Positions 3,501-12,396 of a stretch of 12,396 bases of DNA are shown here, one piece after another. A program made the translations under genes and the position numbers. Within the stretch, counting starts at the first letter, position 1. Each line of letters opens with the position of its first letter. Under the pieces are notes generated by a model, which was not told the DNA's origin, searched no databases, and worked only from the letters and a program-made list of their open reading frames with translations. Source of the DNA: a virus (lineage: Duplodnaviria > Heunggongvirae > Uroviricota > Caudoviricetes); the IMG/VR virus record IMGVR_UViG_2563366960_000005, positions 1-12,396 of that record. One strand, written 5' to 3'.

Positions 3501-4031
3501 ATGAAAGGCTATATCACAGCAAGTGTAATTCTTGGAGCAGCGGCTATTTTTTCATCTCTCATAATCTCTGGCAACATCTCCTTTAAAGATGAACATATTA
3601 TTCAGTTATCTGGAGGAGCCATAAAACTTGGTGATGTTTATAAAGAAAATAAATTGATAAGTGCAAAGATTATTTTTCCAGATAATCAGGGTGAACAGAT
3701 TCTTGTTGTCGACGGCAATCCTGAAAACTTTAAGGAGGATTTTCAGGAGAAATTAAATAAAGTAATAAAAACTTTAAATGCGTCAAAGAAAAAAGATGAA
3801 GAGAAAGTTAGCCTGGATAATTTAAGTGTTGTTGAAGAGTCTAAACTAGAGCTCGTTTCTGCGGTGCGTTACTCTGCTCAGTATGTTCCTATGTTTACTC
3901 TGACGCTGGACAAAAAAGAAATTACCATGCCTAAAAATACGGTAATATTTCCATTTGCCAGCGATGAAACAGCTAAGTATTTAAATGAACAACAGCAAAA
4001 GTATAAAGATTCGTTGTTTCTGACTCGCTAA
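3501..4031 (+). CDS. Hypothetical moron protein with an N-terminal hydrophobic segment (possible signal peptide or membrane anchor)
   Basis: 176-aa ORF in a sharply AT-rich block between GC-richer tail genes, flanked by non-coding DNA on both sides and followed by a hairpin terminator. The N-terminus MKGYITASVILGAAAIFSSLIISG is hydrophobic; the rest is Lys/Glu/Asp-rich. No family recognised. Confidence 0.6.
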   Translation: MKGYITASVILGAAAIFSSLIISGNISFKDEHIIQLSGGAIKLGDVYKENKLISAKIIFPDNQGEQILVVDGNPENFKEDFQEKLNKVIKTLNASKKKDEEKVSLDNLSVVEESKLELVSAVRYSAQYVPMFTLTLDKKEITMPKNTVIFPFASDETAKYLNEQQQKYKDSLFLTR

Positions 4032-4092: not shown

Positions 4093-5421
4093 ATGACGTG
4101 GAAAGACAGGCTTCAGGACGCGTCATTTCGCGGCGTGCCGTTTAAGGTCGAAGAAGAAAGTGCGGGAACAGGTCGCCGTGTGGAAACGCACGAATACCCG
4201 AACCGCGACAAACCCTATACCGAAGATCTGGGAAAAGTCACTTTCCGCCCGTCCATCACGGCTTATGTGGTGGGAGATGACTGCTTTGACCAGCGCGATC
4301 GCCTGATTGACGCGCTGAATAAACCCGGTCCCGGCACGCTTGTCCATCCGACATACGGTGAGCTGAAAGTCTGTGTTGACGGGGAAGTTCGGGTCAGCAC
4401 ATCGAAAAGTGAAGGGCGTATTGTCCGCTTTGACCTGAAGTTTGTCGAAGCAGGAGAACTCTCTTACCCCACATCAGGTGCGGCGACGGCGCAGACGCTG
4501 ATGTCATCCTGTTCTGCACTGGATGACTGCATCAGTGACAGCTTCAGCGGTTTCAGTATCGATGGTGTGGCGGATTTCGTGCAGAACGACGTTATCGGTA
4601 ATGCCAGCATAATGCTGGGGTATGTTTCTGATGCGATGAAAGTGGTGGATTCTGCCGTATCGGATGCCGCCAGGCTGTTGCAGGGGGATATCTCGGTACT
4701 TCTGCCGCCGCCATCGTCAGGCAAAAATTTCGTTGAGCAGGTGCAGAAAATGTGGCGTACCGGGAAACGCCTTTATGGTAACGCCAGCGACCTGGTCACC
4801 ATGATCAAAACGCTTTCCGGTGTCAGCCTCGGCAGCGATCTGCAACCGCGCGGCGTCTGGAAAACGGACAGTAAAACCACCGCCACGGCGACGCAGCAGC
4901 GTAACGTGGTTGCCAGCACCCTTCGTACGACCGCAATCAGCGAAGCGGCGTATGCCGTCACCCGATTGCCTGCGCCAACAACTTCCGCGGTGATGCAGAA
5001 TTCCGCAGTGGGGCAGGCAACAACACCCGCGCAGAGCACTGGCTGGCCTTCCGTCACGCATCCGGCACTGAACAATGCACCGGCGGTGAAAAACACGGTT
5101 GACCTGCCGACGTGGGAAGAACTGACTGACATTCGCGACACACTGAATACGGCAATTGATAAGGAGTTGTCCCGTACAACCAGCGATGCGCTGTTTCTGG
5201 CGCTGCGCCGGGTGAAAGCAGATCTGAATGCGGATATCAACACGCGCCTTGAACAGTCTGCACGGATCATTCAGCGCACACCGGATGAGGTTTTACCCGC
5301 GCTGGTGCTGGCGGCGACCTGGTTTGATAACGCGGCGCGTGACGCGGACATTATCCGGCGTAATGCCATTACGCATCCCGGCTTTGTGCCGGTGATCCCT
5401 CTGAAGGTGCCAGTGCAATGA
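4093..5421 (+). CDS. Phage DNA circularization protein (Mu gpN / gp43-like)
   Basis: 442-aa ORF with a GGAG ribosome-binding site at 4084-4087. The N-terminus MTWKDRLQDASFRGVPFKV...GRRVETHEYPNRDKPYTEDLG matches, as I recall it, the conserved N-terminal domain of Mu gpN-like proteins. It sits between the tape-measure and hub genes as in Mu-like tail modules. Confidence 0.75.
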   Translation: MTWKDRLQDASFRGVPFKVEEESAGTGRRVETHEYPNRDKPYTEDLGKVTFRPSITAYVVGDDCFDQRDRLIDALNKPGPGTLVHPTYGELKVCVDGEVRVSTSKSEGRIVRFDLKFVEAGELSYPTSGAATAQTLMSSCSALDDCISDSFSGFSIDGVADFVQNDVIGNASIMLGYVSDAMKVVDSAVSDAARLLQGDISVLLPPPSSGKNFVEQVQKMWRTGKRLYGNASDLVTMIKTLSGVSLGSDLQPRGVWKTDSKTTATATQQRNVVASTLRTTAISEAAYAVTRLPAPTTSAVMQNSAVGQATTPAQSTGWPSVTHPALNNAPAVKNTVDLPTWEELTDIRDTLNTAIDKELSRTTSDALFLALRRVKADLNADINTRLEQSARIIQRTPDEVLPALVLAATWFDNAARDADIIRRNAITHPGFVPVIPLKVPVQ

Positions 5422-6497
5422 ACGACAATGTCACGCTACGGGTAAATGGCCGGGAGTGGAATGGCTGGACATCGGTGCGCATCGGTGCCGGTATTGAACG
5501 GCTGGCGCGGGATTTCAGCGTGGAGATCACCCGCCAGTGGCCGGGTGATGAGGGTATCACCACGCTTCAGCCGCGCATTAAAAATGGTTCAAAAGTGGAA
5601 GTGCTGATTGGTGATGAGCTGGTGATCACCGGCTGGGTGGAGGCGACCCCCGTTCGTTACGATGCCCGTTCGGTCAGCACCGGTATTGCCGGACGTAGTC
5701 TGACTGCTGACCTGATTGACTGTGCAGCCGAACCGACACAGTTTAACGGACGATCGCTGGTACAGATTGCGCAGGCGCTTGCTGCGCCTTTCGGCATTGA
5801 GGTGGTGAACAGCGATGCGCCGTCGGGTGTTATTCCGGATGTCCAGCCTGATCACGGTGAAACGGTGATCGAGGTGATCAACAAAATACTCGGTCAGCAG
5901 CAGGCGCTGGCTTATGACGACCCGCACGGCAGGCTGGTGATTGGTGGTATTGGCTCAACGCAGGCACATACCGCGCTGGTACTTGGGGAAAACATCCTTT
6001 CCTGTGATACGGAGAAGAGTATCCGGGAGCGGTTTTCAGTTTACCAGGTGGCGGGGCAGCGTGCCGGAAACGACGATGATTTCGGTGAGGCCACCACCAC
6101 CGCGCTGCGGGCCCGCACAGAGGATGCATTTATTGCCCGTTACCGTCCGATGTATATCAGGCAGACAGGGCAGGCTACGGGGGCAGGCTGTATTGCGCGT
6201 GCTGACTTTGAAGCCCGACAACGGGCGGCGCGGACGGATGAAACCACCTATGTGGTGCAGGGCTGGCGACAGGGTAACGGTACGCTGTGGCAGCCCAACC
6301 AGCGGGTGATTGTCTTCGATCCGGTCTGTGGTTTCGACAATACCGAACTGCTTGTCTCGGAAGTCACGTTTACTCAGGACCAGAATGGCACCCTGACGGA
6401 AATCCGTGTCGGCCCACCTGATGCTTATCTGCCTGAACCCGAAGCCCCCGGCGCGCGGAAAAAGAAAAAAGCCAGAGTACAGGAGGACCCGTTCTGA
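5418..6497 (+). CDS. Phage tail/baseplate hub protein (Mu gpP / gp44-like, P2 gpD-like)
   Basis: 359-aa ORF coupled by ATGA overlaps to the genes on either side. Size and position match the hub gene that follows gpN in Mu-like clusters. Confidence 0.65.
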   Translation: MNDNVTLRVNGREWNGWTSVRIGAGIERLARDFSVEITRQWPGDEGITTLQPRIKNGSKVEVLIGDELVITGWVEATPVRYDARSVSTGIAGRSLTADLIDCAAEPTQFNGRSLVQIAQALAAPFGIEVVNSDAPSGVIPDVQPDHGETVIEVINKILGQQQALAYDDPHGRLVIGGIGSTQAHTALVLGENILSCDTEKSIRERFSVYQVAGQRAGNDDDFGEATTTALRARTEDAFIARYRPMYIRQTGQATGAGCIARADFEARQRAARTDETTYVVQGWRQGNGTLWQPNQRVIVFDPVCGFDNTELLVSEVTFTQDQNGTLTEIRVGPPDAYLPEPEAPGARKKKKARVQEDPF

Positions 6498-7045
6498 TGA
6501 AGGCGATTGAAACCATACAGCGACAACTCCTCGGCCTGATTGGGCGGGCGGTGGTGAAAAGCATCAGTGCCGCCACGAAATGTCAGACCGTGGATGTGTC
6601 CCTGATTGCCGGTGAACCCAAAGCCGGGGTTGAACATCTTGAACCCTACGGTTTTACCGCAAGAGCAAACAGCGGTGCGGAAGCGGTGGTGTTGTTTCCG
6701 GATGGTGACCGTTCTCATGCGGTGGTTGTTACGGTGTCGGACCGGCGCTACCGCCTGAAAGGGCTGCAGACTGGTGAGGTGGCTGTCTATGACGATCAGG
6801 GGCAGTCCGTGACGCTGACCCGGGAGGGGATCGTGGTGGACGGTGCAGGTAAAACGATCACGTTTCGCAATTCACCTAAAGCACGTTTTGAAATGGACCT
6901 GGAAGTGACAGGACAGGTGAAAGACCTGTGCGACTCCAGCGGCACCACCATGTCAGCGATGCGGCTTGCCTATAACGGGCATCGTCACAGAGAGAACGGT
7001 CAGGGCAGTAACACCGACAAACCTGATAAAGCGATGGAGGCATGA
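6497..7045 (+). CDS. Baseplate assembly / central spike protein (gpV-like, Mu gp45-like)
   Basis: 182-aa ORF with gpV-like small beta-rich character (GEVAVYDDQGQSVTLTREGIVVDGAGKTITF). TGATG coupling upstream, ATGA coupling downstream. Confidence 0.65.
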   Translation: MKAIETIQRQLLGLIGRAVVKSISAATKCQTVDVSLIAGEPKAGVEHLEPYGFTARANSGAEAVVLFPDGDRSHAVVVTVSDRRYRLKGLQTGEVAVYDDQGQSVTLTREGIVVDGAGKTITFRNSPKARFEMDLEVTGQVKDLCDSSGTTMSAMRLAYNGHRHRENGQGSNTDKPDKAMEA

Positions 7046-7470
7046 TGGAACTGTGGCTGACGGTGAACGGTAAACGCACCTGCGCCAGCGCACCGCTGGA
7101 TCCGCTGACCCGCGCCGTGGTGATTTCCCTGTTTACCTGGCGGCGGGCGGAGCCTGATGACAACGCCGACGTCCCGATGGGATGGTGGGGGGATACCTAG
7201 CCTGCGGTACAGAATGACCGTTACGGCTCCCGACTGTGGCTGCTTCAGCGCAGCAAACTGACCAATCAGCTGGTGCTGACGGTAAGGGGGTATATCCGCG
7301 AATGCCTGCAATGGATGATTGATGACGGCGTGGTGTCCCGTATTGATCTGGATATCCGCCGCACCGGGATTAATGAACTGGGTAACAGTATCACCCTCTG
7401 GCGTCGTGACGGACCGGTAATGATTTCTTTTGATGATCTGTGGAGTGCGATAACGCATGGCGGACAGTGA
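7045..7470 (+). pseudogene. gp46-like baseplate protein (Mu gp46 family) interrupted by an in-frame amber codon at 7198-7200
   Basis: ATG at 7045 with a GGAGG ribosome-binding site at 7036-7040. The frame is open except for a single TAG at codon 52 (...[27 protein letters not shown]...) and continues in the same frame to the TGA at 7468-7470. The ORF track's 7273..7470 ORF is simply the downstream part of this frame. Confidence 0.55.
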
Positions 7471-8515
7471 ATTTCAGCGCCCGACGCTGGCAGAAAATAT
7501 CAGTATGCTCCGTAACGATTTATTCGCCAGGCTGGACGTCAGCGACACGCTCCGGCGCATGGATGAAGACGTGCGGGCAAAGGTGTATGCGGCGGCGCTG
7601 CATACGGTTTACGGGTACATCGATTATCTGGCAATGAACATGCTGCCTGACCTGTGCGATGAGTCCTGGCTGGCGCGACATGCTGCGATGAAACGGTGTC
7701 CGCGCAAGGGGGCCACGGCTGCCAGCGGGTATATGCGCTGGGAAGGTGTCAGCGATGGCCTGAAGGTGACCGCCGGGAGTGTTATTCAGCGCGATGACCT
7801 GGTTCAGTACACGGCAACTGCCGATGCAACCAGCTCCGGTGGTGTCCTGCGCGTGCCGATCGCCTGCTCAAGTGCAGGCGCGGTCGGTAACGCTGACGAC
7901 GGTACGGCATTAATCCTGGTCACGCCGGTGAATGGTCTGCCGTCTTCCGGTGTGGCTGACACCCTGACAGGCGGATTTGATACTGAAGAGCTGGAAACGT
8001 GGCGCGCCCGCGTCATTGAGCGGTATTACTGGACGCCGCAGGGCGGGGCTGACGGGGACTATGTCGTCTGGGCTAAAGAAGTGCCCGGCATTACCCGCGC
8101 ATGGACATACCGTCACTGGATGGGAACGGGAACTGTCGGTGTGATGATTGCCAGCAGTGACCTGATTAATCCCATTCCGGAAGAATCAACGGAAACGGCG
8201 GCAAGACAACATATCGGGCCACTGGCCCCGGTGGCAGGCTCTGATTTGTATGTGTTCAGGCCGGTGGCACATACGGTGGATTTTCATATCCGCGTGACGC
8301 CGGACACACCGGAAATACGGGCTGCCATCACCGCGGAGTTGCGTTCGTTCCTGCTGCGTGATGGTTATCCGCAGGGAGAACTGAAGGTATCGCGTATCAG
8401 TGAGGCGATTTCCGGTGCGAACGGGGAATACAGCCATCAGTTGCTTGCACCGGCAGACAATATCTCCATTGCAAAAAATGAACTGGCGGTACTGGGGACG
8501 ATTTCATGGACGTGA
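7457..8515 (+). CDS. Baseplate J-like protein (Mu gp47-like)
   Basis: 352-aa ORF, translationally coupled to its neighbours. Size and position after gp46 fit the baseplate J family. Confidence 0.7.
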
Positions 8516-9090
8516 CAAACGATGATTACATCCGTCTGTTGTCGGCACTGTTGCCCCCCGGTCCGGCGTGGTCAGCCAGCGATCCGTCGATTGCCGGTGC
8601 GGCACCGTCATTAACCCGCGTTCATCAGCGTGCGGATGCCCTGATGCGGGAGCTGGATCCGCGCACCACCACTGAACTGATAAACCGCTGGGAGCGTCTG
8701 TGCGGTCTGCCGGATGAATGTATTCCCGCAGGGACACAGACCCTTCGCCAGCGTCAGCAACGGCTGGATGCGAAGGTTAACCTGGCGGGCGGCATCAACG
8801 AGAATTTTTATCTTGCACAGCTTGCTGCCCTGGGCAGACCAGACGCTACCATCACGCGATACGACAAAAGCACGTTCACCTGCTCATCGGCCTGTACTGA
8901 CGCGGTGAATGCGCCGGAATGGCGGTATTACTGGCAGGTCAACATGCCAGCCGCCACAAACACCACCTGGATGACATGTGGCGATCCCTGTGATTCCGCA
9001 CTGCGTATCTGGGGCGACACCGTTGTCGAATGTGTGCTTAACAAACTCTGTCCGTCTCATACCTACGTAATTTTTAAATATCCGGAGTAA
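8506..9090 (+). CDS. Phage tail protein (Mu gp48-like / DUF2313-like, P2 gpI-like)
   Basis: 194-aa ORF between the J-like gene and the tail fiber gene, the conserved position of gp48/gpI-type wedge proteins. Confidence 0.6.
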
Positions 9091-9093
9091 TCC

Positions 9094-9864
9094 ATGCATC
9101 GCATAGACACGAAAACCGCGCAGAAGGATAAGTTCGGCGCGGGTAAGAACGGTTTTACCCGTGGCAACCCCCAGACCGGCACGCCTGCCACCGATCTGGA
9201 TGATGACTACTTTGACATGTTGCAGGAAGAGCTTTGTAGCGTGGTGGAGGCATCCGGTGCCAGCCTGGAGAAGGAGAGGCACGACCAGCTGCTTACCGCG
9301 CTTCGTGCGCTGCTGTTAAGTCGCAAAAATCCGTTTGGCGATATCAAATCGGATGGCACGGTGAAAACGGCTCTCGAAAACCTTGGTTTGGGAGAAGGCT
9401 CTGCATTACCTGTTGGTGTCCCTGTTCCGTGGCCTTCAGCCACTCCGCCAACAGGCTGGCTGAAATGCAACGGAGCAGCTTTTTCTGCTGAAGAATACCC
9501 GGAACTGGCAAAGGCTTACCCGACAAATAAATTGCCAGATTTACGTGGTGAGTTTATTCGTGGCTGGGATGACGGGCGTGGTATTGATGCTGGACGTGCT
9601 TTATTGAGCCTTCAGGCTGGGATGCTGGAAAAACACCGCCATATTGTTGTTGCCAATGATGGTTACGACACAAAAGATGAATGGGAACTGGCTACGATTT
9701 TCAAAAAAACATACACACAAGGACGGGGACTTGATGCCACAAATACAGGAGGGAGTCTGATCCCATCACCGACACTTCATTCACGAGGGAGTATCGGTAA
9801 TACTGGCGGGAGTGAGACCCGTCCACGAAATATTGCATTTAACTTTATCGTGAGGGCTGCATAA
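9094..9864 (+). CDS. Tail fiber protein: constant N-terminal part (to about 9384) plus variable C-terminal part in the current orientation
   Basis: 256-aa ORF with a GGAG ribosome-binding site at 9084-9087. The C-terminal half has a tail-collar-like motif ([23 protein letters not shown]...[19 protein letters not shown]). A hix/gix-like crossover site lies inside the ORF at 9371-9396, spanning the codons for ENLGLGE. Confidence 0.75.
9371..9396 (+). promoter_or_regulatory. hix/gix-like invertase crossover site, left (CTCTCGAAAACC-TT-GGTTTGGGAGAA)
   Basis: 26-bp imperfect palindrome resembling Hin/Gin recombination sites as I recall them (TTCTTGAAAACC AA GGTTTTTGATAA). It shares a 15-bp identity (TTGGTTTGGGAGAAG) in inverted orientation with the site at 11219-11244. 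Confidence 0.55.
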
Positions 9865-10466
9865 TGGATAACGCAGTATTAAATAGCGAGTTTATTGCCA
9901 CGAAGGCGGGGAATATTACCGTCTATAACTACGATGGTGAAACTCGGGAATATATTTCTGCATCAACTGAATATCTTGCAGTGGGTGTCGGTATTCCAGC
10001 ATATTCCTGTTTAGACGCTCCTGGTACATATAAGGCTGGTTATACAATTTGCCGTTCTGTAGATTTAAATTCATGGGAATATGTGCCAGACCATCGCGGT
10101 GAAATCGTCTATAACACCGAAACGGGAGATGCCAAAGAAATCACAGCACCGGGTGATTACCCCGAAAATACAACCACTATCGCCCCATTAACGCCATACG
10201 ATAAATGGGATGGTGAGAAATGGGTGACCGATACTGAGGCACAGCATAGCGCCGCAGTAGACGCGGCAGAAGCACAGCGTCAGTCACTGATTGATGCTGC
10301 AATGGCTTCCATCAGTCTGATTCAGCTGAAATTACAGGCCGGACGGAAGTTGATGCAGGCAGAAACAACCCGGCTTAACGCTGTGCTGGATTACATTGAC
10401 GCGGTGACGGCAACAAATACCAGCACAGCGCCGGATGTCATCTGGCCTGAACTGCCGGAGGCGTAG
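9864..10466 (+). CDS. Tail fiber assembly chaperone (Mu U / Tfa-like)
   Basis: 200-aa ORF with a TAATG overlap to the fiber gene. Its C-terminal motif ...LDYIDAVTATNTSTAPDVIWPELPEA is shared with the convergent paralogue. Confidence 0.7.
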   Translation: MDNAVLNSEFIATKAGNITVYNYDGETREYISASTEYLAVGVGIPAYSCLDAPGTYKAGYTICRSVDLNSWEYVPDHRGEIVYNTETGDAKEITAPGDYPENTTTIAPLTPYDKWDGEKWVTDTEAQHSAAVDAAEAQRQSLIDAAMASISLIQLKLQAGRKLMQAETTRLNAVLDYIDAVTATNTSTAPDVIWPELPEA

Positions 10467-10881
10467 GCCATTCAATATCTGGCGCCCCGGAAGTATCGAC
10501 CAGTTCCAGTGCGTCCAGATAATCCAGCCACAAATTATATTGCGCCAGCTCGTCCCCCTTCAGGCGACCAATAGCTGCTTTACCAGGCCATTGCCTACTG
10601 TTCATGTATTCGTTGGCATGGTTAATCAATAATTGCCTCTCTGATTCGGCCTGTTCAATAAGTTCCTCATGTGATGGTGGAGGTATTTCAGCCCATGTGG
10701 GAAAACCATTTTCCCCTGCAACTCGGATTTTCCCTTGTGGCGGTTCCGCCATATATTTTACAGAAATGTCATCAGGAATATCTAATGCATCAGCAGGCCA
10801 TGTTCCATTTACTTCATAAGTGTTTTTTAAATTAACAGCATAAAAAGCATTTTCCGAAGGGGAATAAATATATTGATTCAT
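10438..10881 (-). CDS. Alternative tail fiber assembly chaperone (U'-like)
   Basis: 147-aa minus-strand ORF whose 3' end overlaps the 3' end of the + strand chaperone. Its C-terminus ...LDYLDALELVDTSGAPDIEWPTPP parallels the U-like C-terminus. It starts 1 nt after the stop of the alternative fiber segment. Confidence 0.7.
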   Translation of the reverse strand: MNQYIYSPSENAFYAVNLKNTYEVNGTWPADALDIPDDISVKYMAEPPQGKIRVAGENGFPTWAEIPPPSHEELIEQAESERQLLINHANEYMNSRQWPGKAAIGRLKGDELAQYNLWLDYLDALELVDTSGAPDIEWPTPPAVQAR

Positions 10882-10882
10882 A

Positions 10883-11232
10883 TTATCTTCCTATTGCGAT
10901 AATCATAGTTCCATACAAACCATTTCCGGTTGATACTTTTAAAGTTACTGATGTCCTTGTTGTCGTGTACCCCATAAGTTTAAAGGTCGGAGCAGCCGTT
11001 AATGAGCCATCTGACCATAAGGCACTAACAGCTAGTGCGCCTGAAGGAAATGCAATAGGGAAATTACCTGTAGTTCCGTTAGTGTCCGCCCCATAAACAT
11101 TCATCGAAAACATTTGGACAATATGACCACTTGGTAACTGAAACCAGTTTTTGCCAGATGGAAATGCAGACATATCTGGTATCTGATTTTCCCCTGTTCC
11201 CACATTCCGTTTTGCCGCTTCTCCCAAACCAA
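10883..11232 (-). CDS. Alternative tail fiber C-terminal segment (Sv'-like); has no start of its own and would be expressed only after inversion fuses it to the constant N-terminus
   Basis: Minus-strand frame open from the crossover site at 11219-11244 to the TAA at 10883-10885. Next to the crossover it encodes ...GLGE, identical to the residues encoded at the other crossover site in the + strand fiber gene. Confidence 0.6.
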
Positions 11233-11244
11233 CGTTTATGAAAA
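11219..11244 (+). promoter_or_regulatory. hix/gix-like invertase crossover site, right (TTCTCCCAAACC-AA-CGTTTATGAAAA)
   Basis: Inverted copy of the half-site plus core of the 9371-9396 site. It lies about 55 bp upstream of the invertase ATG, the canonical position for such sites. Confidence 0.55.
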
Positions 11245-11298
11245 TGCAGAAATAACGAGCAAATGGCATCATTCCTGCTTTTGCCAGGGGGAGCTACC

Positions 11299-11526
11299 AT
11301 GCTTATTGGGTATGTACGCGTATCAACAAATGACCGGAACACCGCTCTGCAACGTAATTCGTTGAACTGTGCAGAATGTGAGTTGATTTTGAAGATAAAA
11401 TCAGTGGCACAAAGTTCAATAAAAAATATACCTGACACATTATACGAAGAAGATTTTATGGTTTTTTCTGTTGATTTTTTAACATGGCTGCATGGATACA
11501 GATATGACGAAGGTAATGTAGAGTAG
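11299..11526 (+). pseudogene. Truncated serine DNA invertase (Gin/Pin/Hin family); only about 31 N-terminal codons are retained
   Basis: ATG at 11299 with a GGGGGAG ribosome-binding site at 11286-11292. The encoded MLIGYVRVSTNDRNTALQRNSLNCAECELI matches the invertase N-terminus including the catalytic-serine region. Homology ends at about 11390; the frame then continues through AT-rich unrelated sequence to the TAG at 11524-11526, giving roughly 75 aa instead of the roughly 190 aa expected. Confidence 0.6.
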
Positions 11527-11538
11527 TAAGAACATAAA

Positions 11539-11561
11539 TAGGCTGACAAAAGTTCAGCCTA
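11539..11561. terminator. Hairpin between convergent genes, possible bidirectional terminator
   Basis: TAGGCTGA (11539-11546), loop CAAAAGT, TCAGCCTA (11554-11561). On the minus strand it is followed by TTTATGTT, 14 nt after the stop of the 273-aa gene. The T tract is weak on both strands. Confidence 0.3.
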
Positions 11562-11574
11562 CAGTCTTTTCATC

Positions 11575-12396
11575 TTATCTTACAGCTGGTGTTTGAGGTG
11601 GCTTCGTTTTCGTTTTTTTCACGCCCTTGTTTTTTACTATTTCCAGTGCCCTTTTCTGAAGGTCTACTCCTGATGGATAGAGCACGTTGAGAATGTGCTC
11701 AGTCAGTCGGTACGCATCAAACAGATCACTTTGAGTTAAACCTGATGCTGCGTGACTCCCTTCATTACCTAACCACTTAACAGCAAATAAAAGTCCATCT
11801 AACTTTCCAAATGTTTTTTTTCTATGTGCAGCTATGGTAATTCGTTCATGAAGAGACATGAGGCACCGCTCGCGCTTGGACTTACCCTTCCGCTTAATTA
11901 ATTTGTATTTTGGTATATTGTATTCAGATAAAAGATTCTCTATTGCCATTCTAACCTTGTTTGCTGCTGAGCTTGGCGAAAGTAGTGTCAGTGAAAATGC
12001 TTCTTGCAAATTCTCATATACTTCAGATGGACATGTTGTGGGGATATCTATGTACTGTAGCGGAGGGATAAATACTTTGGGGATGTAATAGCTAAAGTAC
12101 TCCTGTATCTGTTCATCTCGATCATTTACAGTAATATCCATCTCAACATAACCAGTGCCTGAGCAGACGACAACTTCCTCGCATTCATGATTTTCGCATA
12201 CCAGAACCGCAGTAAAAACCTCTTTAATCAGTTCTGTATCGGAGCCGAGAATCTCAATAAGATTATGTGATTCACTAGTTACCTTTGCATAAAATTTTTC
12301 TTTATTTAATTTCAAACTGCTTCTTCCGCAACTTGGGCACGGGTATGTCACGTAGTCATTTACTTTGAAAGGTTTACCAATTGAAAACTTATCCAT
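11575..12396 (-). CDS. Hypothetical protein with N-terminal Cys-rich putative zinc ribbon and C-terminal DUF4145/HEPN-like region; candidate defence or abortive-infection cargo
   Basis: 273-aa minus-strand ORF in AT-rich DNA; its ATG is the last three bases of the window, so its promoter is outside. Cysteines at C20-x2-C23 and C67-x4-C72 (plus C78). The C-terminal third has SPSSAANKVRMAIENLLSEY ... KWLGNEGSHAAS, resembling the R/K-x-x-G-N-x-x-x-H signature I associate with DUF4145/HEPN-like domains. Ends in a Lys-rich tail. Family assignment is unverified. Confidence 0.55.
   Translation of the reverse strand: MDKFSIGKPFKVNDYVTYPCPSCGRSSLKLNKEKFYAKVTSESHNLIEILGSDTELIKEVFTAVLVCENHECEEVVVCSGTGYVEMDITVNDRDEQIQEYFSYYIPKVFIPPLQYIDIPTTCPSEVYENLQEAFSLTLLSPSSAANKVRMAIENLLSEYNIPKYKLIKRKGKSKRERCLMSLHERITIAAHRKKTFGKLDGLLFAVKWLGNEGSHAASGLTQSDLFDAYRLTEHILNVLYPSGVDLQKRALEIVKNKGVKKTKTKPPQTPAVR

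Follow-up and report, generated by a model that had tools for sequence, protein, structure and literature searches.

The stretch of DNA analysed here (12,396 nt, referred to below as the window) most probably carries, at a probability of about 0.85, a Pin-type invertible tail-fibre cassette of an e14-like prophage at thrW, with its own invertase dead and its crossover sites intact, in which the segment could be flipped only by another resident invertase. By descent, the locus is a switch of the Gin/Cin/Pin/Hin kind that has lost its enzyme. With only a stump of its invertase gene left, the cassette is probably fixed in the display of a single fibre tip; both sites and probably the Fis enhancer survive, so that inversion could still be brought about by an invertase from elsewhere. 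The prophage is located at thrW, next to proA, in E. coli. The region from thrW to the pin remnant contains an integrase, immunity and lysis genes and a full structural module, and the host prophage looks e14-like and complete. The features of the cassette and of the adjoining DNA are presented in Table 1.

Table 1. Features of the fibre cassette, the pin remnant and the DNA beyond it (positions are those of the window).
Feature	Position	Strand	Description and evidence
Constant 5' tail-fibre part, aa 1-97	9094..9384	+	Outside the invertible segment; corresponds to the StfP N-terminus / Mu Sc
Left crossover site (pixL)	9371-9396		CTCTCGAAAACC-TT-GGTTTGGGAGAA; within the fibre ORF, codes ..ENLGLGE; identical to K-12 e14 (L003) 3779-3804
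Variable fibre end A, collar-type	9385..9864	+	Faces the constant part (expressed position); GLGE + 155 aa
Assembly chaperone of end A, TfaE-like, 200 aa	9864..10466	+	Caudo_TAP, E = 2e-30; 88.5% identical to K-12 TfaE
Assembly chaperone of end B, 147 aa	10438..10881	-	Caudo_TAP, E = 1.4e-32; 55% identical to K-12 TfaP
Silent variable fibre end B, gp53-like	10883..11272	-	129-aa ORF; Pfam Gp53-like_C, E = 5e-9
Right crossover site (pixR)	11219-11244		TTCTCCCAAACC-AA-CGTTTATGAAAA; identical to K-12 e14 (L003) 5606-5631
pin invertase remnant, codons 1-39	11299..11415	+	Aligned to K-12 pinE, MB15 pinE, a P2-like invertase and SfMu gin
Putative Fis-dependent recombinational enhancer	11318..11390		Within the pin remnant; position rule and gin/pin homology
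Foreign DNA in place of the remaining pin	11416..12396	-	AT-rich spacer, hairpin and DUF4145 gene; not part of the switch
Bidirectional terminator-like hairpin	11538-11562		Terminator scan
DUF4145 cargo gene, 273 aa	11575-12396	-	DUF4145, E = 2e-10 (Pfam)

The repeat scan of the window showed that the arms 9378-9397 and 11218-11237 form an inverted repeat of 20 nt with 95% complementarity. The 15-mer TTGGTTTGGGAGAAG occurs in exactly two copies on opposite strands (9383-9397, plus; 11218-11232, minus), while about 0.02 matches were expected by chance and two or more copies were found in 0 of 200 shuffles. These arms belong to two imperfect palindromes of 26 bp (...AAACC NN GGTTT...), inverted relative to each other, with identical and compatible 2-bp cores (TT/AA). 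Base for base, pixL and pixR are the crossover pair of the K-12 e14 P segment, the inverting repeats of which have been given as TTGGTTTGGGAGAAGG (PMC12529663) and for which phase variation has been demonstrated (PMC4272514). Moreover, pixR aligns with the SfMu gix site adjoining gin. The inverted 26-bp sites at these positions, and their hix/gix-like nature, had already been proposed in a preliminary description of the sequence; both the repeat scan with the alignment and the likeness to the e14 and Mu-type sites agree with it.

The organisation around the sites is that of a tail-fibre host-range cassette, in which a constant 5' part lies outside the segment, two opposed 3' ends are each accompanied by their own Tfa protein, and the reading frame is kept across the sites. 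The window is 97% identical to K-12 e14 at the DNA level up to position 9398, and aa 1-105 of its fibre are 96% identical to aa 1-105 of K-12 StfP. The fibre at the expressed position has 256 aa, with GLGE at aa 98-101 followed by 155 aa; its end A contains a Collar domain (Pfam PF07484, E = 1.6e-15, aa 108-155) and is 60% identical to K-12 StfE. The silent 129-aa ORF begins with a 14-codon leader, its start being located between pixR and pin (a StfE-type start), and continues with GLGE at aa 15-18 and a further 111 aa. The two chaperone genes are convergent and overlap by 29 bp. After inversion, the constant part would be continued by nt 10883-11230 in a predicted fibre of 209 aa, and this fusion is a real gene in nine genomes. 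The promoter scan of the pin stump and the silent 129-aa ORF gave matches no commoner than in shuffled sequence. The earlier reading that both fibre frames cross the sites with a common GLGE junction is borne out by the translation, and the lengths of about 160 and 112 aa given there for the two ends were about right. The Pfam matches (Collar, Gp53-like_C and two Caudo_TAP) likewise support the two fibre-end/chaperone modules of the proposed exchange and the tail-collar-like motif in the fibre at the expressed position.

Both orientations of this type of cassette occur among relatives. In E. coli muskdeer13-4, the same cassette is flipped, with 99.46% identity over window positions 9378-11237 and breakpoints inside both repeats, and the crossover sites are thereby independently confirmed. 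The pinE gene of this strain is intact and its chaperone proteins are identical to those of the window; MB15, also with an intact pinE, has the orientation of the window. Among 5,426 genomes, 517 have the collar-type end joined to the constant part, i.e., expressed, and 953 have it next to pin, i.e., silent. For the gp53-type end, 9 genomes have the fusion and 21 the silent state. It might be argued that the repeats are only a chance or vestigial likeness and that the two modules are convergent fibre gene fragments unable to recombine. This explanation, for which we see hardly any room, was rejected: it would have to accommodate the twofold, inverted presence of a 15-mer expected 0.02 times, sites equal to the functional ones of e14, an identical cassette precisely inverted between the repeats in another genome and hundreds of genomes with each orientation.

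The enzyme of the switch is represented by the first 117 nt of pin only. Homology to pinE runs from the ATG at 11299 to 11415, and the truncation point is defined by the foreign DNA that replaces the rest of the gene from 11416. The remnant has a 1-bp deletion in a T-run near 11387-11390, which causes a frameshift at about codon 31. In addition, three conserved residues are altered by non-synonymous changes (D16A, A21S and G26E). The remnant is without the catalytic core beyond roughly aa 30 and gives a weak Resolvase match in Pfam (E = 0.005), and no intact serine recombinase gene of about 180-200 aa adjoins the cassette. In identical genomes, RefSeq labels pin as a pseudogene ('frameshifted; incomplete; missing C-terminus'). 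The truncation of the adjacent invertase, previously noticed from the sequence, is therefore confirmed by the end of the pinE homology at 11415 and by the 1-bp deletion. For the cargo next to the stump, the DUF4145 protein and two hypothetical proteins encoded downstream were scanned with PADLOC; the sole match, to PD-T7-4, was not significant (E = 0.003).

A Fis enhancer is probably kept inside the stump, judging by its position and by homology. In hin, a 65-bp enhancer is separated by about 100 bp from the closest hix site, and the distance between its Fis sites is 47 bp (PMC3798978). The corresponding stretch is present in the window and is conserved from gin to pin in the alignment; within it, the presumed distal Fis site differs by a G>A change, and the 1-bp deletion lies just beyond this site, at the distal edge of the enhancer.

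According to the proposed mechanism, the constant N-terminus of the fibre would be read through the left 26-bp site into whichever variable end faces it, followed by the chaperone of that end. A serine invertase would break the DNA at the central TT/AA dinucleotide of both sites, turn the segment between them round and rejoin the ends, so that the collar-type end with its TfaE-like chaperone would be exchanged for the gp53-like end with the other chaperone. The gene of the cognate enzyme is dead, with the frameshift near codon 31, the truncation after codon 39 and the DUF4145 cargo gene in place of the rest. With the crossover sites intact and an enhancer assigned by position and homology, the switch should still serve as a substrate for inversion; with its own enzyme absent, it would be effectively frozen with the collar-type fibre expressed.

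The orientation of the exact allele was compared between its copies. The cassette with the dead pin has one orientation in eight of eight copies, i.e., the window, five complete genomes (PSUO2, B1172, FDAARGOS_1267, AST216 and OZ547033) and two metagenome contigs. None of the complete genomes is that of the source strain; they differ from the window at 4-5 nt, none of which lies in the cassette, and the two metagenome contigs with the truncation junction are identical to the window. The truncation junction had no matches among contigs representing one genome per species. The difference between these eight copies and the carriers of an intact pin is weak (Fisher p = 0.07), and the copies represent one lineage and are not independent.

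The main alternative is that the switch is not locked, with a co-resident prophage invertase of the PinQ/PinR, Pin or Gin type flipping it in trans at a relevant rate. Such flipping is known from K-12, where the P segment of e14 is inverted in trans by overproduced PinQ of the Qin prophage, a protein with only 38% identity to PinE (PMC12529663), and the window has sites identical to those of e14 and has retained the enhancer region. Other invertases on the chromosomes were searched for with a chimeric pinE/pinQ/gin DNA query, which detects loci with at least roughly 65-70% identity to these three genes. Three of the five carriers have one or two further invertase-like loci (two in FDAARGOS_1267, one each in AST216 and OZ547033), and EC6563, a strain with the opposite orientation, has five; some of these loci may be Tn3-type resolvases rather than invertases. 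However, all three carriers show the same assembled orientation as the window, and the chromosomes of PSUO2 and B1172 had no other pinE/pinQ/gin-like locus detectable with this DNA query. In addition, within the first 100 kb of plasmid pPSUO2 (111 kb), tblastn revealed no invertase-like locus. The uniform orientation of the exact allele also speaks against flipping in trans, compared with the other carriers, in which the gp53-type end is fused in 9 and silent in 16 and those listed are annotated with pinE. Moreover, the P segment of K-12 pinE mutants is locked despite the presence of pinQ and pinR on the chromosome (PMC12529663). We thus regard frequent inversion by a resident enzyme as unlikely. 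The preliminary description had considered the switch probably locked unless another invertase acts in trans, which fits the single orientation, the two chromosomes without a candidate and the data on pinE and PinQ from K-12. Its question of other invertases elsewhere in the genome received a divided answer: none was detected on two of the five carrier chromosomes, one or two loci were present in three, and the source strain stands outside this set. It is plausible that the switch is locked in this lineage and that the collar-type fibre is the one shown, although the inability to flip is inferred and flipping at low frequency may occur.

EC6563 could be taken as an example of a site-specific flip that took place after the truncation of pin. 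It shares with the window the frameshift, the point of truncation and the DUF4145 protein (WP_001560836.1), has the segment reversed and contains the five further invertase-like loci mentioned above. However, the divergence between the two sequences is stepwise, with 8 substitutions in 11247-11336 and only 2 differences in 11337-12423. Identity is only 93-97.5% in the cassette and the fibre to its left, and the second modules of the two are unrelated. This pattern, seen in the sequence comparison, points to homologous recombination with a breakpoint inside the pin stump, by which the block of truncated pin and DUF4145 was joined to a different e14-like prophage body; the latter could already have been in the other orientation on its arrival. 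Owing to this breakpoint and the different second module, we downgraded EC6563 as proof of flipping after the truncation, which remains a somewhat doubtful interpretation of this strain.

The cassette was compared with the well-known inversion systems, of which the K-12 e14 P segment (pinE; stfP/tfaP versus stfE/tfaE) is the closest. Apart from the identical 26-bp sites, the two share the gene order ymfQ, constant fibre N-terminus, two variable ends with their chaperones and pin, as well as the high identity of the constant part (96%) and TfaE (88.5%). The orientation in the window corresponds to the 'inverted' state of K-12, in which the StfP N-terminus is fused to the StfE-type collar end. 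However, the e14 pin is a gene of 184 aa, whereas the window has a 117-nt stump, and the identity between the collar end and StfE is only 60%. No similarity could be detected between the second variable end and the C-terminus of StfP; the chaperone of this end is 55% identical to TfaP. The prophage of the window is of full length at thrW, whereas e14 is a deleted remnant at icd, and the cargo after pin is DUF4145 in the former and mcrA in the latter. Identity with e14 itself was therefore rejected on account of the integration site, the cargo and the variable ends, which are 60% identical or unrelated, and the element is regarded as an e14-like relative.

The G segment of Mu (gin) and the C segment of P1 (cin) follow the same logic, with a constant Sc, alternative Sv/U and Sv'/U' and an invertase just outside one site. 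The site of the window aligns with gix of SfMu (TTCCTGTAAACCGAGGTTTTAGATAA against TTCTCCCAAACCAACGTTTATGAAAA), and SfMu gin and the remnant are conserved over the first ~110 nt, including the stretch of the putative enhancer. Unlike in Mu and P1, the fibre of the window is different and much shorter (256 aa, about 97 of them constant), the half-site sequences differ, and the invertase is non-functional. The Hin/hix system of Salmonella belongs to the same recombinase family and has the same 26-bp site design and a Fis-bound enhancer of 65 bp, about 100 bp from one site and inside the recombinase gene (PMC3798978). However, Hin flips a promoter and the hin gene is located inside the segment, whereas the cassette described here swaps coding 3' ends and pin is outside. 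The inversion of the P segment by a non-cognate invertase and its locking upon the loss of pinE (Kirigo et al. 2025, PMC12529663) are the scenario of the preliminary description, but that case concerns K-12 with overproduced PinQ, and two of the genomes with the allele of the window have no detectable candidate on the chromosome.

The cassette is an ordinary one of the e14/Pin type, a decayed copy of a long-known system with nothing new in kind, and its significance beyond annotation is small. As it demonstrates, an invertible host-range cassette of the textbook kind can be deprived of its enzyme while the DNA sites persist; a prophage in this state is bound to a single receptor-binding tip unless an invertase is provided by another prophage in the same cell. 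The locus is a natural example for work on cross-talk between prophage invertases. Moreover, the exchange of cargo genes at a prophage end can clip the neighbouring pin. The ~1.1-kb block of truncated pin and DUF4145 is 99.8% identical between two e14-like prophages that have otherwise diverged by 3-7%. One could speculate that the loss of pin is not simple decay, that this block spreads by homologous recombination and fixes flipping switches, in the lineage of the window in the orientation that also gives a chimeric ORF of the StfE2 type (10883-11272), the K-12 counterpart of which reportedly blocks the adsorption of phage T2, and that the frozen state is a selected constitutive setting of host defence or host range, but we consider this very improbable.

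Annotators should interpret the 129-aa 'gp53-like' ORF jointly with the pseudogene labelled 'recombinase family protein': the former is a silent end of the fibre and the latter the dead enzyme of the switch.

The preliminary description proposed two inverted 26-bp crossover sites, pixL (CTCTCGAAAACC-TT-GGTTTGGGAGAA) and pixR (TTCTCCCAAACC-AA-CGTTTATGAAAA), and the repeat search, the 15-mer count and the sequence itself agree on both. The inverted-repeat search of the window returned a 20-nt repeat with 95% complementarity (9378-9397 and 11218-11237), and the 15-mer named in that description occurs exactly twice, on opposite strands, with about 0.02 matches expected and none of 200 shuffles giving two. 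Both sites are base-for-base those of the e14 prophage of E. coli K-12 (3779-3804 and 5606-5631 of comparison sequence L003), where the inverted repeats of the 1797-bp invertible P segment are 5'-TTGGTTTGGGAGAAGG (Kirigo et al., PMC12529663) and the P locus is phase-variable in culture (Goldberg et al., PMC4272514). Translation bore out that both fibre frames cross the sites and encode GLGE at each junction, followed by 155 residues in the expressed frame and 111 in the silent frame.

Genes and crossover sites at the right end of the window, with identity to K-12 e14
Feature	Position	Strand	Length	Identity to K-12 e14
Mu gp48/YmfQ baseplate protein	8506-9090			
Tail fibre, tail-collar domain	9094-9864	+	256 aa	constant N-terminus, 96% (StfP); collar end, 60% (StfE)
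pixL	9371-9396		26 bp	identical
Tfa chaperone	9864-10466	+	200 aa	88.5% (TfaE)
Tfa chaperone, convergent with the 200-aa chaperone	10438-10881	-	147 aa	55% (TfaP)
ORF, gp53-like C-terminal domain	10883-11272	-	129 aa	
pixR	11219-11244		26 bp	identical
ORF, weak resolvase N-terminal match	11263-11526	+	87 aa	
DUF4145 protein	11575-12396	-	273 aa	

The e14 protein comparison detected no similarity between the gp53-like end and the C-terminus of K-12 StfP. For pixR and the opening ~110 nt of the invertase gene, alignments were obtained to pinE (K-12 and MB15), to a P2-like prophage's invertase and to gix/gin of phage SfMu. By these matches the region is an invertible tail-fibre cassette of the Gin/Cin/Pin/Hin family, of Pin type. 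It belongs to the family by descent, and its mode of working is that of e14 P, Mu G and P1 C inversion, with one defining component lost, the enzyme. It is a degenerate new case of a known system and no departure from known biology, decayed invertase genes and cross-activation by other Pin proteins having either been documented or being expected. At their 3' ends the convergent chaperone genes share 29 bp (10438-10466), and an 18-nt inverted repeat (83%; 10385-10402 and 10511-10528) across them, the second and internal one of the invertible segment, codes for a conserved LDYIDA/LDYLDA motif on both strands.

The true start of pin is the ATG at 11299. Alignment to intact invertase genes extends to 11415, one T is absent from a T5 run (~11387-11390), and the sequence past ...GGCACAAAGT is unrelated to pin. 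RefSeq annotates the remnant as frameshifted and incomplete, and the truncation of the adjacent invertase, as originally described, is upheld on all these counts. The stump carries non-synonymous changes at conserved residues, namely D16A, A21S and G26E, which are what pseudogene status would predict, and Q13R in the window alone. Judging from its sequence, it cannot encode an active recombinase. In relatives, pinE is followed by one cargo gene that varies, K-12 having mcrA and both MB15 and muskdeer13-4 a gene for a GIY-YIG protein (nuclease); the cargo after the stump in the window is the DUF4145 gene, with a terminator-like hairpin, and pin was likely clipped through cargo replacement. The DUF4145 protein goes under the name DUF8608 in one RefSeq record, and two small hypothetical genes share its slot (11575-12396 in the window, 12784-13511 in comparison sequence L007); a few kb past the slot, the genome EC6563 has a retron Ec48 system. 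This prophage-end region looks like a defence-cargo hotspot; PADLOC on the cargo region returned a non-significant match to PD-T7-4 alone.

The e14-like prophage of E. coli muskdeer13-4, with an intact pinE, matches window positions 9378-11237 at 99.46% identity in reverse orientation. The alignments of the constant-fibre and pin flanks stop within the two repeats, and both of its chaperones share their protein accessions with those of the window's lineage. This flipped cassette is the proof that the two 26-bp repeats are the crossover points. MB15, also with an intact pinE, has the window's orientation. Synthetic 300-bp junction queries across 5,426 genomes found the collar end joined to the constant part (expressed) in 517 genomes and adjoining pin (silent) in 953, close to the 33% inversion reported for e14 (PMC12529663). 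The window's gp53-like end was joined to the constant part in nine genomes and adjoined pin in 21, including the five complete genomes with the truncated pin. The nine fusions are annotated stfP or gp53-like, and the predicted inversion product is therefore a real, naturally occurring fibre.

pixL and pixR have both survived intact. In hin, the enhancer spans 65 bp, sits ~100 bp away from the nearest hix and has its Fis sites at a spacing of 47 bp, and the Mu enhancer is positioned 'within the invertase gene' (PMC3798978). When hin distances were counted from the centre of pixR (11231/2), the predicted Fis enhancer fell roughly at 11318-11390, so that the stump would still contain it; the 1-bp deletion falls at its far edge, and the truncation lies 25 bp further. 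A few changes aside, conservation with pinE and gin is good over this stretch. The intact sites and the predicted enhancer suggest that the cassette is probably still competent as an inversion substrate. Carrier chromosomes were surveyed with a chimeric query (the unique DUF4145 region, the 3' part of pinE, pinQ and gin), the matching places being counted as other invertase-like loci: none in PSUO2 and B1172, one each in AST216 and isolate AF5, two in FDAARGOS_1267 and five in EC6563. On the 111-kb PSUO2 plasmid, tblastn over the first 100 kb detected no Pin/PinQ/Gin-like sequence, and this stretch has no annotated recombinase of the type. As to the suggestion that the switch is locked unless another invertase acts in trans, the survey detected no candidate locus in the chromosomes of two of the five complete genomes and one or two in each of the other three. 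All eight copies of the truncated allele with the window's cassette (in the window, in the five genomes and in two metagenome contigs retrieved with the truncation junction) are in one orientation; other genomes with the window's gp53-type end split 9 vs 16 (Fisher p=0.07, copies not independent). K-12 pinE mutants have a locked P segment, and overproduced PinQ, the invertase of another prophage and 38% identical to PinE, flips it (PMC12529663). With the cis, trans, orientation and K-12 evidence combined, the best reading is that the cassette is frozen with the collar-type fibre on and flippable by a foreign invertase alone.

A sixth genome, EC6563, shares the frameshift and the point of truncation with the window and encodes an identical DUF4145 protein, yet its segment is in the opposite orientation, which at first sight would suggest flipping after the truncation of pin. 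However, EC6563 differs from the window by eight substitutions in 11247-11336 and then at two places in the next 1,087 bp (to 12423). Left of the stump, identity is 97.5% for the fibre and baseplate and 92.8% for the collar/TfaE module, and the second modules are unrelated. Such stepped divergence places a homologous-recombination breakpoint inside the stump. From these alignments we infer that recombination has put one and the same pin'-DUF4145 block next to two distinct e14-like prophage bodies, which indicates horizontal spread of the block between diverged e14-like prophages. The orientation could have arrived with the incoming DNA, so EC6563 is no proof of trans inversion; it shows that the scar is older than the present prophages and transferable between them. 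In the frozen, collar-on state that we favour, the gp53-like end follows a short leader of StfE type that supplies an ATG (MMPFARYFCIFINVGLGE...), and the two form a complete ORF, annotated by RefSeq as a protein. By position this ORF corresponds to the 'StfE2' chimera of K-12, for which a block of T2 adsorption has been reported (PMC12529663). A promoter scan of the silent ORF gave no convincing promoter. The least ordinary reading, and a very improbable one, is that the frozen orientation, which creates the StfE2-type chimeric ORF, is under selection.

The five complete E. coli genomes matching the window (PSUO2, FDAARGOS_1267, B1172, AST216 and isolate AF5) are 100% identical to it over the queried 3.4-kb region and differ at 4-5 nt over the whole window. 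The same four positions (1942, 1945, 1948 and 7199) differ from all five, so the source strain is a sixth, unsampled relative; three of them cluster in a 7-bp stretch inside the tape-measure gene and may reflect a small conversion tract or a sequencing artefact. In PSUO2 the cassette lies at the end of a ~36-kb prophage integrated at tRNA-Thr (thrW), adjoining proA; this prophage encodes an integrase, e14-like immunity (ymfK/ymfT/ymfL), lysis functions and a complete head-and-tail module. K-12 e14 is a deleted remnant, of which the PSUO2 prophage looks like a full-length relative. About 4.3 kb to the right of the window, past DUF4145, two hypothetical genes, a DMT transporter and an aminotransferase, the 3' end of thrW recurs as a perfect 48-bp repeat (27686-27733 of comparison sequence L001), with a partial integrase and the vat toxin island after it; the unit bounded by thrW repeats therefore comprises the prophage and ~5 kb of additional genes and stands in tandem with the vat island. 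E. coli JP538 (4956-8487 of comparison sequence L014) carries this invertible cassette too, at 97.8% identity between the left site and the 5' end of pin, within a P2-like prophage between gpI and the tail sheath gene, joined to a much longer 509-aa gpH-type fibre and with a 188-aa invertase; the cassette is thus common to unrelated tail architectures.
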